Virus record (IMG/VR): IMGVR_UViG_3300025401_000012
DNA length: 64,000 nt
Direction: 5' to 3' (one strand)
DNA from: a virus
Taxonomy: Duplodnaviria > Caudoviricetes
The notes under the pieces are model-generated. The model saw only the letters and a program-made list of their open reading frames with translations. It did no database searches and had not been told where the DNA came from. Shown here in pieces: positions 16,557 through 22,445 of the stretch (its first letter is position 1; each line of letters starts with the position of its first letter). The position numbers and the translations under genes are program-made.

Positions 16557-16561
16557 TTACG

Positions 16562-16650
16562 CTCCCGTATACCCCGTGTTTCACGGTTAACCACCTTACA
16601 TTGCGGGTTTACCACAGTTTAACCATACAGAAAATTGGTCTTTTCTGTAA
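16562..16650 (-). promoter_or_regulatory. Structured 5' leader (candidate cis-regulatory RNA)
   Basis: 9-bp hairpin 16626-16649, TGTGG/CCGCA hairpin, GGTTAA/TTAACC pairing, CCGTG-AAA-CACGG hairpin before GGGAG SD. Confidence 0.55.
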
Positions 16651-16657
16651 TCAAAAG

Positions 16658-16664
16658 TATTTAT
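16658..16664 (-). promoter_or_regulatory. T4-type late promoter ATAAATA
   Basis: GATAAATAC upstream of the structured leader of 15048..16556. Confidence 0.75.
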
Positions 16665-16674
16665 CGATTTTTGA

Positions 16675-20709: not shown

Positions 20710-20727
20710 GGAGCCCCGAAGGGCTCC
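20710..20727 (-). terminator. GC-rich hairpin with cUUCGg loop (terminator/stabiliser)
   Basis: GGAGCCC-TTCG-GGGCTCC on the minus strand just after the stop of 20738..21724; weak U-tract. Confidence 0.65.
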
Positions 20728-20737
20728 TACTTAACTA

Positions 20738-21724
20738 TTAGATGTTATCTAACTGTACTTGTGTTGCTACACCACCTGTGAAGTTCCAAACAACTTGAGT
20801 TTGTGTTGGGAATGTCCAAGGACCTGCACCAGAACGGATCAATGTTGCTTTACGATTAGTAAGTTTTTGAACCCAATATGTTCCTCCGCTAGTATCTGTA
20901 GCATTAATAGCCATTTGTCCAGCAGATGCAGGAGTTGTTGTTACTAATTTGCAGAATGTGCCAGGGTGTACATTAGAGTCTTGATTGATAACTCTAAAAC
21001 TACGTGAACCTTCTTGTTTAGCAATATCACTATATTGTCGAACTGTTGAACCAGTTGTAATAGCATAACATACAATACTTGGATAATCTGCATTTGTACT
21101 GTAACCACTTGTTACTTCAGCATCTAATGTAATTGTAGCTGCAGCAGTACCGCTTGATACTGTAATTGTTAATGGACTTTGAGCTGGAGCATAACCAGCG
21201 CCTGAATCAGTAAGTGTAACACCCAACATACCATATGTAACTGTTAATAATACTCCAGCACCTGTTGATCCTTGAGTTGTAGTTAATGTAGTAGCTTGTC
21301 CGCCAGTTGACCCGCCTGTAAATGATCCAGCACTTGCGCCTGTGCCTGTAAAATTAACTGTAGCAACATTGTTACCAGATAATGTAGCAACATAAGCTGT
21401 AGCTGTACCATAAGCAGTTGTAAATGTTAACAAGTCTCCTACGTGGTAAGTGCCAGTTTGAGTTCCGCTAACTGTAGCGGAAATTGCTTTACCTACAAAT
21501 GTACCAGTTGCAGTTGCAGCTGTAATACCTTCACTACCTGTCGGTGTTGGAAATGTTAAACCTGGAAATGCTGTTGTGTATGATCCAACATTACTAACTG
21601 TTACACCCAATTGATTAACACCTGTACCAGCTAGTTTAGCTGTTGGATCTACTGATCGACGAAATGAGCCAGTAACTCCGGCATTTCTGCCACCAAAATA
21701 TTTCTTATTTAAAGGACGTCCCAT
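20738..21724 (-). CDS. Thr/Gly-rich virion protein (328 aa; MGRPLNKKYFG N-terminus)
   Basis: ORF track; AAGGAG SD; own late promoter. Confidence 0.85.
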   Translation of the reverse strand: MGRPLNKKYFGGRNAGVTGSFRRSVDPTAKLAGTGVNQLGVTVSNVGSYTTAFPGLTFPTPTGSEGITAATATGTFVGKAISATVSGTQTGTYHVGDLLTFTTAYGTATAYVATLSGNNVATVNFTGTGASAGSFTGGSTGGQATTLTTTQGSTGAGVLLTVTYGMLGVTLTDSGAGYAPAQSPLTITVSSGTAAATITLDAEVTSGYSTNADYPSIVCYAITTGSTVRQYSDIAKQEGSRSFRVINQDSNVHPGTFCKLVTTTPASAGQMAINATDTSGGTYWVQKLTNRKATLIRSGAGPWTFPTQTQVVWNFTGGVATQVQLDNI

Positions 21725-21732
21725 TTTATTTT

Positions 21733-21808
21733 CTCCTTATGAAAACACGGCGTTCTAGGCCGTACGCGGTTGGATTTCCGCATAAAATCCACCCCATGTG
21801 GATCGTAC
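21733..21808 (-). promoter_or_regulatory. Structured 5' leader with possible pseudoknot (candidate cis-regulatory RNA)
   Basis: ATCCAC/GTGGAT, TATGCGG/CCGCGTA, GGATTT/AAATCC and ACGGC/GCCGT pairings within 60 nt. Confidence 0.6.
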
Positions 21809-21812
21809 TATG

Positions 21813-21819
21813 TATTTAT
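21813..21819 (-). promoter_or_regulatory. T4-type late promoter ATAAATA overlapping the upstream stop codon
   Basis: CATAAATAC; its TAA is the stop of 21816..22403. Confidence 0.75.
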
Positions 21820-22403
21820 GCGTAGGTAATTCTTAAGCTGGCTTGGTCAAGATAACAAATATCTCTATGCGGATATATTGGATTACTACTAAAACTTACT
21901 GCAACACCAAATGTAGGATTTGCTATATCAGCACTAGTAAGTCCTGTTGTTCCCCATAGGTCTGTAGAACTACCGTACACATTAAGATCCCCTACAGGGT
22001 GCAATGGTATAGTGAAATCTCCAGTATACATATCACTTTGTACTACGTTAACTCCGCTTGCATAATTATCGCCAATAAGTTGACCATTAAGTGTTAATTG
22101 TATTAATAAATCTTGTATTCTAGCTGAACGTTGTATATTGAGTTGAAGTTCTATGCCTGTTACAGGTTTACCTGTATTAGGAAATTTATATCCTGTACAC
22201 CACAATTGGCTTGTATTACTTAAAAACTTTTCCATCCATATTCCGCTGATTGTGTAAAGAGGTTTACTGCTAGTAGCGTACGATCCTGGAGCAATTGCTG
22301 TAGGATCAAATATCCAATCGATACTAGAATTTTGTGGAACTATAGTGTTAGGAACTGATACATTAGCAATAGTAGTTGGAAATAAAAATTGTGTAGTAGT
22401 CAT
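21816..22403 (-). CDS. Hypothetical late protein (195 aa, likely beta-sandwich; possible head decoration by position)
   Basis: ORF track frame; start moved to ATG 22403 (MTTTQF) because the track start lies upstream of the GTAAATA promoter; immediately downstream of the capsid gene. Confidence 0.75.
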   Translation of the reverse strand: MTTTQFLFPTTIANVSVPNTIVPQNSSIDWIFDPTAIAPGSYATSSKPLYTISGIWMEKFLSNTSQLWCTGYKFPNTGKPVTGIELQLNIQRSARIQDLLIQLTLNGQLIGDNYASGVNVVQSDMYTGDFTIPLHPVGDLNVYGSSTDLWGTTGLTSADIANPTFGVAVSFSSNPIYPHRDICYLDQASLRITYA

Positions 22404-22407
22404 ATTA

Positions 22408-22414
22408 TATTTAC
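22408..22414 (-). promoter_or_regulatory. Late promoter variant GTAAATA
   Basis: GTAAATATAATATG directly abutting the start codon. Confidence 0.65.
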
Positions 22415-22421
22415 CCAAACA

Positions 22422-22445
22422 AAAAGGACTCCGAAGAGTCCTTTT
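22422..22445 (-). terminator. Intrinsic terminator after the major capsid gene (bidirectional-type)
   Basis: AAAAGGACTC-TTCG-GAGTCCTTTT perfect stem with UUCG loop and U-tract on the minus strand. Confidence 0.85.

Follow-up and report, generated by a model that had tools for sequence, protein, structure and literature searches.

A copy of the freshwater-2 RNA motif, with a putative pseudoknot at the start codon, heads a late-type gene in a giant T4-like phage

The leader of a 328-aa gene beginning MGRPLNKKYFG, on the minus strand of the window (the whole 64,000-nt stretch of phage DNA analysed here), is almost certainly a canonical copy of the freshwater-2 RNA motif (Rfam RF02980), judging from its sequence. 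Comparison with related leaders moderately supports a pseudoknot in which the loop of the second hairpin pairs at the start codon, distinct from the pseudoknot of the original prediction for this leader. The finding is a rediscovery of a catalogued motif, and the conformational switch proposed in that prediction is peculiar to this copy. An Rfam scan of the whole window gave two matches, one of them RF02980 (E = 1.5e-09), which was matched over model positions 1-84 of 84 with a cmscan score of 74.5 bits (gathering score 49.9). The features of the leader, with its three hairpins (P1, P2 and P3) and Shine–Dalgarno (SD) sequence, are as follows.

21722-21803, minus strand: full-length match to Rfam RF02980, freshwater-2, covering three hairpins, SD and start codon
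21787-21803, minus strand: P1 hairpin, AUCCAC-AUGGG-GUGGAU, read from the sequence
21763-21784, minus strand: P2 hairpin, UAUGCGG-AAAUCCAA-CCGCGUA, with conserved stem sequence
21770-21774, minus strand: 3′ part of the P2 loop, UCCAA, 5′ strand of the putative pseudoknot
21748-21762, minus strand: P3 hairpin, CGGC-CUAGAAC-GCCG, whose invariant loop is written in upper case in the Rfam consensus
21733-21738, minus strand: SD, AAGGAG, conserved in the Rfam consensus and in the loci of relatives
21722-21724, minus strand: ATG of the 328-aa ORF (MGRPLNKKYFG start), from the ORF reading
21719-21724, minus strand: start codon and codon 2 (AUGGGA), 3′ strand of the putative pseudoknot

The RF02980 model shares the three hairpins and also includes the UUAUGCgG...CcGCGUA stem, the CUAGAAC loop, AAGGAGAAAA and the AUG, hence the motif had already been described, and the suggestion of an undescribed cis-regulatory RNA gives way to a full-model match above the gathering score. 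The leader has the family's hairpins with the UAUGCNG/CNGCGUA stem and CUAGAAC loop, backed by covariation, and sits in a cis-regulatory position directly upstream of an ORF with the SD and AUG inside the model; its anatomy shows no difference from freshwater-2. The motif is catalogued in Rfam without an assigned function and presumably originates from the 224-motif screen of Weinberg et al. 2017. Freshwater-2 is absent from the main text of the 224-motif paper (PMC5737381), and a literature search on freshwater-2 and RF02980 found no relevant paper.

The predicted hairpins, the AAGGAG SD and the MGRPLNKKYFG gene were all confirmed in their places on the minus strand, with 8 nt separating the SD from the ATG of the 328-aa ORF, and the core leader pattern had no match in 100 shuffles of the window. 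P3 had been drawn as ACGGC...GCCGT; the flanking A and U could indeed lengthen it, but that A belongs to P2. GC content is raised in the stretch (42%, against 36% in the window), although the description "strikingly GC-rich" was an overstatement; 17% of 95-nt windows equal or exceed 42%. The P1-P3 core reaches 52% GC, and the gap is the most GC-rich intergenic one in the window.

IMG/VR was scanned with three DNA patterns, each of which matched at least 120 contigs. Among the matches listed, contigs with the leader ranged from 4 to 383 kb, and sets of 108, 109, 170 or 172 leaders were used depending on the test, together with a MAFFT alignment of 144 leaders (A2) and an alignment of 78 leaders from the window's own clade (A3), both likewise drawn from the matches listed. 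All three hairpins were 100% paired in A3 (n = 78), with four, one and two covarying pairs in P1, P2 and P3 respectively, the four in P1 being pairs (of six) that had changed on both sides. Across A2 (n = 144), P2 was 98.5% paired with one covarying pair (GC 71, AU 55, UA 18), and P3 was 95.9% paired with all four of its pairs covarying. P1 was missing in a share of other clades among the matches listed, and in these matches the distance from an upstream promoter-like box to P2 fell into two classes, with P1 and without it. Covariation in P1-P3 and the fixed position upstream of an ORF uphold the original view of a conserved, structured, cis-acting leader.

As originally proposed, an H-type pseudoknot very probably involves the P2 loop, but the partner of the loop appears to be the start codon and codon 2 rather than the 3′ arm of P1. 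Among the matches listed, the loop carried CCC[AG] in 75 and GCC[AG] in none of the 106 leaders with a GGN second codon (Gly2), and GCC[AG] in 32 and CCC[AG] in none of the 66 with GCN (Ala2); the second search pattern required ATGGC and left the loop unconstrained. Gly2 loops paired with their own start region at -5.1 kcal/mol and with that of the other class at -1.9 kcal/mol, the corresponding values for Ala2 loops being -4.8 and -2.9 kcal/mol. The loop-start helix (A2 columns 19-22 with 80-83) was 82.1% paired, a level that none of 500 shuffles reached (76.6 +/- 0.8), and showed 26 both-side changes against 10.9 +/- 2.3 in shuffles; controls with a slid register in A2 were at most 53.7% paired. 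At the informative pair, A2 columns 19-83, CG was seen in 79 leaders, GC in 26, UG in 2 and other combinations in 35. Within A3 the loop:codon-2 pairs were UA 67 / AU 6 and CG 67 / GC 6, such that UCC:GGA becomes AGC:GCU in the window's clade, with two pairs changing together. Covariation thus links the 3′ part of the P2 loop to ORF positions +2 to +6, the loop strand abuts the 3′ strand of P2 in the classical geometry of an H-type pseudoknot, and a pseudoknot of this kind at the start codon probably exists.

A tree of the downstream protein, built without its N-terminus, implies at least 16 changes of codon 2. Among eight well-supported independent pairs, the loop changed to match codon 2 in about five and changed the opposite way in none, a borderline sign test (p ~0.03-0.06). 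The helix rests on few informative positions because the AUG and the G at +4 never change: one pair is able to covary family-wide and two in the window's clade, and no leader with a non-G at +4 was found in IMG/VR in that sequence context. It is only 3-5 bp long, around half of the Ala2 leaders are without a neat GCC[AG], and in the window copy one register (i) includes a U.G wobble while another (ii) has just three Watson–Crick pairs (-3.1 kcal/mol). A separate candidate, in which the start-like P1 loop (AUGGG) kisses the P2 loop or acts as a decoy, was rejected, as P1 loops are unchanged in Ala2 members with a changed P2 loop and those of other clades are unrelated. Two further candidate roles were considered, dimerisation through the CTAG palindrome of the P3 loop and mimicry of a tRNA end by the NCCA-like P2 loop.

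The leader lies in the head region of its genome. On the same strand is a T4-type head module with a portal (Pfam Portal_T4, 3.4e-106), a prohead protease and a major capsid protein (PHROGs), in which the gene at the scaffold position belongs to an uncharacterised PHROG family. The capsid gene shares ~70% DNA identity with capsid genes of jumbo phages such as 121Q, the ORFs of the window include ones of 2329, 2352 and 5374 aa, and the source is an uncultured freshwater giant T4-like (jumbo) phage. The gp23-like major capsid gene is followed by a terminator, a 200-aa ORF, the leader and the 328-aa gene, and among the matches listed each of the 224 loci with a detectable capsid homologue had it upstream and on the same strand (median distance 386 nt). 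The features surrounding the leader are as follows.

22421-22441, minus strand: intrinsic terminator, GGACUC-UUCG-GAGUCC-UUUUU, directly after the major capsid gene
21813-21819, minus strand: ATAAATA box (CATAAATAC), resembling a T4-type late promoter and overlapping the TAA stop of the upstream ORF
20738-21724, minus strand: 328-aa gene with the MGRPLNKKYFG start, encoding a conserved protein predicted to be all-beta
20710-20727, minus strand: GC-rich hairpin, GGAGCCC-UUCG-GGGCUCC, immediately behind the stop codon of the 328-aa gene, with no clear U tract

The late promoter of T4 is TATAAATA, which is read by gp55/gp33 and needs no -35 element. The window box, CATAAATA at 21813-21820, which holds the stop codon of the upstream 200-aa ORF, matches it in seven of eight bases, differing at the first, and the consensus of the box in the family is GATAAATAC (169 of 172 leaders among the matches listed). 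Of 109 unique leaders among the matches listed, 108 had TAAATA no more than 60 nt upstream. In the window, ATAAATA is present in nine copies in 64 kb, six of which are just upstream of gene starts, with intergenic DNA making up 3.6%; this enrichment immediately before structural genes, in a phage whose portal, protease and capsid genes are T4-like, is a further likeness, and the box looks like a T4-type late promoter. The other five genes headed by ATAAATA have leaders of 25-30 nt, apart from one of ~108 nt, compared with 95 nt here. P1, or P2 where P1 is missing, starts a few nucleotides past the predicted transcription start. At the other end, the stable UUCG hairpin behind the stop codon (20710-20727) is likely the 3′ end or a stabiliser of the message, with a putative terminator role, hence the message is probably monocistronic and the leader probably forms the ~90-95-nt 5′ end of a late single-gene message.

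Three further sites in the window were recorded. Another long gap (118 nt, 16557-16674, minus strand) lies behind a GATAAATAC box upstream of a 502-aa gene, and has hairpin potential but no Rfam match at the gathering score. In the 200-aa ORF, the first ATG comes only 4 nt after a TAAATA box (22408-22413, minus strand), and the TTG start listed for this ORF (22418) lies upstream of that box. A full-length match to Rfam RF01718, the Polynucleobacter-1 RNA, is found at 33795-33927 (minus strand), scoring 99.1 bits, where the gathering score is 37.

The 328-aa protein had no Pfam or PHROG match, and none of its 529 homologues was informatively named. Its AlphaFold2 model (pLDDT 79.7) is all-beta; Foldseek against the PDB returned nothing at E <= 0.001, VIA-align returned nothing with Z >= 5 (the best being a T4 sheath domain, Z 4.9 over 77 residues), and the protein Atlas gave weak leads only, for example Phage-Gp8 on 22% of one cluster. 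The product is probably part of the virion. The leader-linked, virion-type protein has an invariant basic N-terminus, MGRP-L/I-N/K-K, and the ORFs headed by the leader always begin M-G/A-R-P/S/A... among the matches listed, a start which is conserved at the protein level, as the Arg codon varies (CGU, CGC, AGA). Of the complete leader-linked proteins among the matches listed, 145 of 147 still group as one family when the first 20 residues are removed, which rules out the leader and N-terminus being a mobile cassette placed on unrelated proteins.

Single contigs showed other arrangements. Two leaders of the window's clade (near L129:4979-5084 and L148:3158-3264) head an unrelated protein of ~160 aa (MAHTRK.../MANTRK...), with a AAAUCCAA loop unmatched to codon 2 (GCA), and look like a leader captured by another gene. 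One contig (L062) carries two freshwater-2 leaders ~1.2 kb apart (450-549 and 1632-1733), each of which heads a paralogous MGRPL... gene.

We consider it fairly likely that freshwater-2 is the leader of a late virion-type gene in which a start-codon pseudoknot serves as a translational operator. The P2 loop would pair with the start codon and codon 2, here as U-C-C:G-G-A plus an A:U pair with the AUG, and the resulting H-type pseudoknot, stacked on P2, would hide the AUG and so lower or gate the initiation of translation, leaving the strong SD exposed. Invariant nucleotides in the P2 stem and in the P3 loop (CUAGAAC) may offer a surface on which a trans-acting factor docks, in the simplest case a phage protein, and this factor would stabilise or open the pseudoknot. 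The gene's own product could be this factor, autogenous control being the most economical guess, and P1 at the 5′ end probably also shields the message from decay. The specific proposal that freshwater-2 is an autogenous operator, in which excess virion protein binds P2/P3, locks the pseudoknot and so matches synthesis to capsid production, is tentative, and we think it rather unlikely in this exact form.

The original prediction placed control elsewhere, with GGAUUU alternating between P1 and the AAAUCC of the P2 loop to give two mutually exclusive, possibly ligand-selected conformers, and as an explanation for this leader we regard it as very unlikely. The complementarity itself is real in the window copy (duplex energy -6.5 kcal/mol), where nested folding favours an alternative fold over the canonical hairpins (-27.3 vs -21.3 kcal/mol), with the proposed helix lengthened to ~10 bp and the 5′ arm of P1 paired with AUGGGACGU. 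The computed probability of P2 is accordingly 0.02-0.18 in this copy, whereas it averages 0.96 over 170 leaders and exceeds 0.88 in 65 of the 78 clade members. The window copy is a thermodynamic outlier because its P1 variant (AUCCAC/GUGGAU, loop AUGGGG) is complementary to the P2 loop as well as to the start region, and the lean toward the alternative fold is confined to the AUCCAC/GUGGAU sub-lineage (13 of 78 in the clade). Among the 78 clade leaders (A3), the helix at the GGAUUU/AAAUCC position was neither conserved (75.8% paired, against 75.4% in shuffles) nor supported by any covariation, and its two G-C pairs were broken in 35 and 57 sequences. The P1 3′ arm bound its own P2 loop no better than those of other leaders (-1.51 kcal/mol, cross pairs -1.60 +/- 0.11, 108 leaders), P1 arms vary within the clade (AUCCAC, ACUUAC, AUUCAC, ACUCAC...) while the P2 loop stays AAAUCCAA, and many clades among the matches listed have no P1 at all. 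Mutually exclusive conformers therefore hold in silico for this copy, and partly for its sub-lineage, but not across the family, and we take the switch to be peculiar to this lineage rather than the mechanism of the family.

Two other explanations leave the P1 arm aside. In a purely structural leader, the hairpins would protect the late message from 5′-end-dependent decay or mark a processing site, and the complementarity of loop and start would have no regulatory role. The position of P1 (or P2) within a few nucleotides of the predicted transcription start and the stable UUCG hairpin that also ends the message fit this, 5′-terminal hairpins being established stabilisers of bacterial mRNAs; stability alone, however, leaves unexplained the invariant CUAGAAC loop and conserved P2 stem, the confinement of the leader to a single gene family in each genome and the way in which loop and codon 2 match reciprocally, and we hold this explanation to be improbable. 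Less probable by far, and the least so of those considered, is a riboswitch, in which the three-hairpin fold would bind a small molecule and control translation through the pseudoknot. Its conserved unpaired nucleotides and a pseudoknot at the initiation region recall the small pseudoknot riboswitches SAM-II and preQ1-II, but the controlled gene is of virion type in a head/tail module rather than metabolic or transport-related, the hairpins are separate with P1 dispensable and no multi-helix junction or pocket, and only RF02980 matched the leader, with no Rfam riboswitch family at E up to 1. No pointer to a small-molecule ligand was found in the sequence, the gene context or the Rfam comparison.

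A translational operator at the start codon would give freshwater-2, previously a metagenome-derived motif without organism, gene function or mechanism, a concrete and testable mode of action, in that its P2 loop tracks codon 2. Our analysis adds to this orphan motif a phage late promoter, a capsid-gene neighbourhood and a single downstream protein family, along with the pairing of the P2 loop and start codon, which may already stand in the curated Rfam annotation. In phages there is little documentation of translational control that is specific to individual late structural genes. If the autogenous reading were true, freshwater-2 would do for a phage structural protein what feedback does for ribosomal proteins, in an arrangement widespread among uncultured giant phages of aquatic habitats.

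Among known systems, the leader of T4 gene 32 had been offered as a precedent. Its pseudoknot lies far upstream of the start and nucleates the cooperative binding of gp32 on an unstructured AU-rich tract. Freshwater-2 shares with it a pseudoknotted leader, a T4-type phage gene and possible autogenous control, but the analogy fails on anatomy, since the sole pseudoknot backed by covariation contains the AUG itself, and the message is predicted to be late. Nor does the product, with no Pfam or PHROG family, an all-beta predicted fold and no clear PDB match, present itself as a gp32-like ssDNA-binding protein. The E. coli rpsO/S15 and alpha operon/S4 systems are translational operators of ribosomal-protein mRNAs in which a pseudoknot is set by a protein. 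They have no sequence or family relation to freshwater-2, the helix of which is much shorter and for which control by a protein is a proposal; what they have, as proposed for freshwater-2, is a hairpin loop that pairs with sequence at the initiation codon, forming a pseudoknot over the ribosome landing site.
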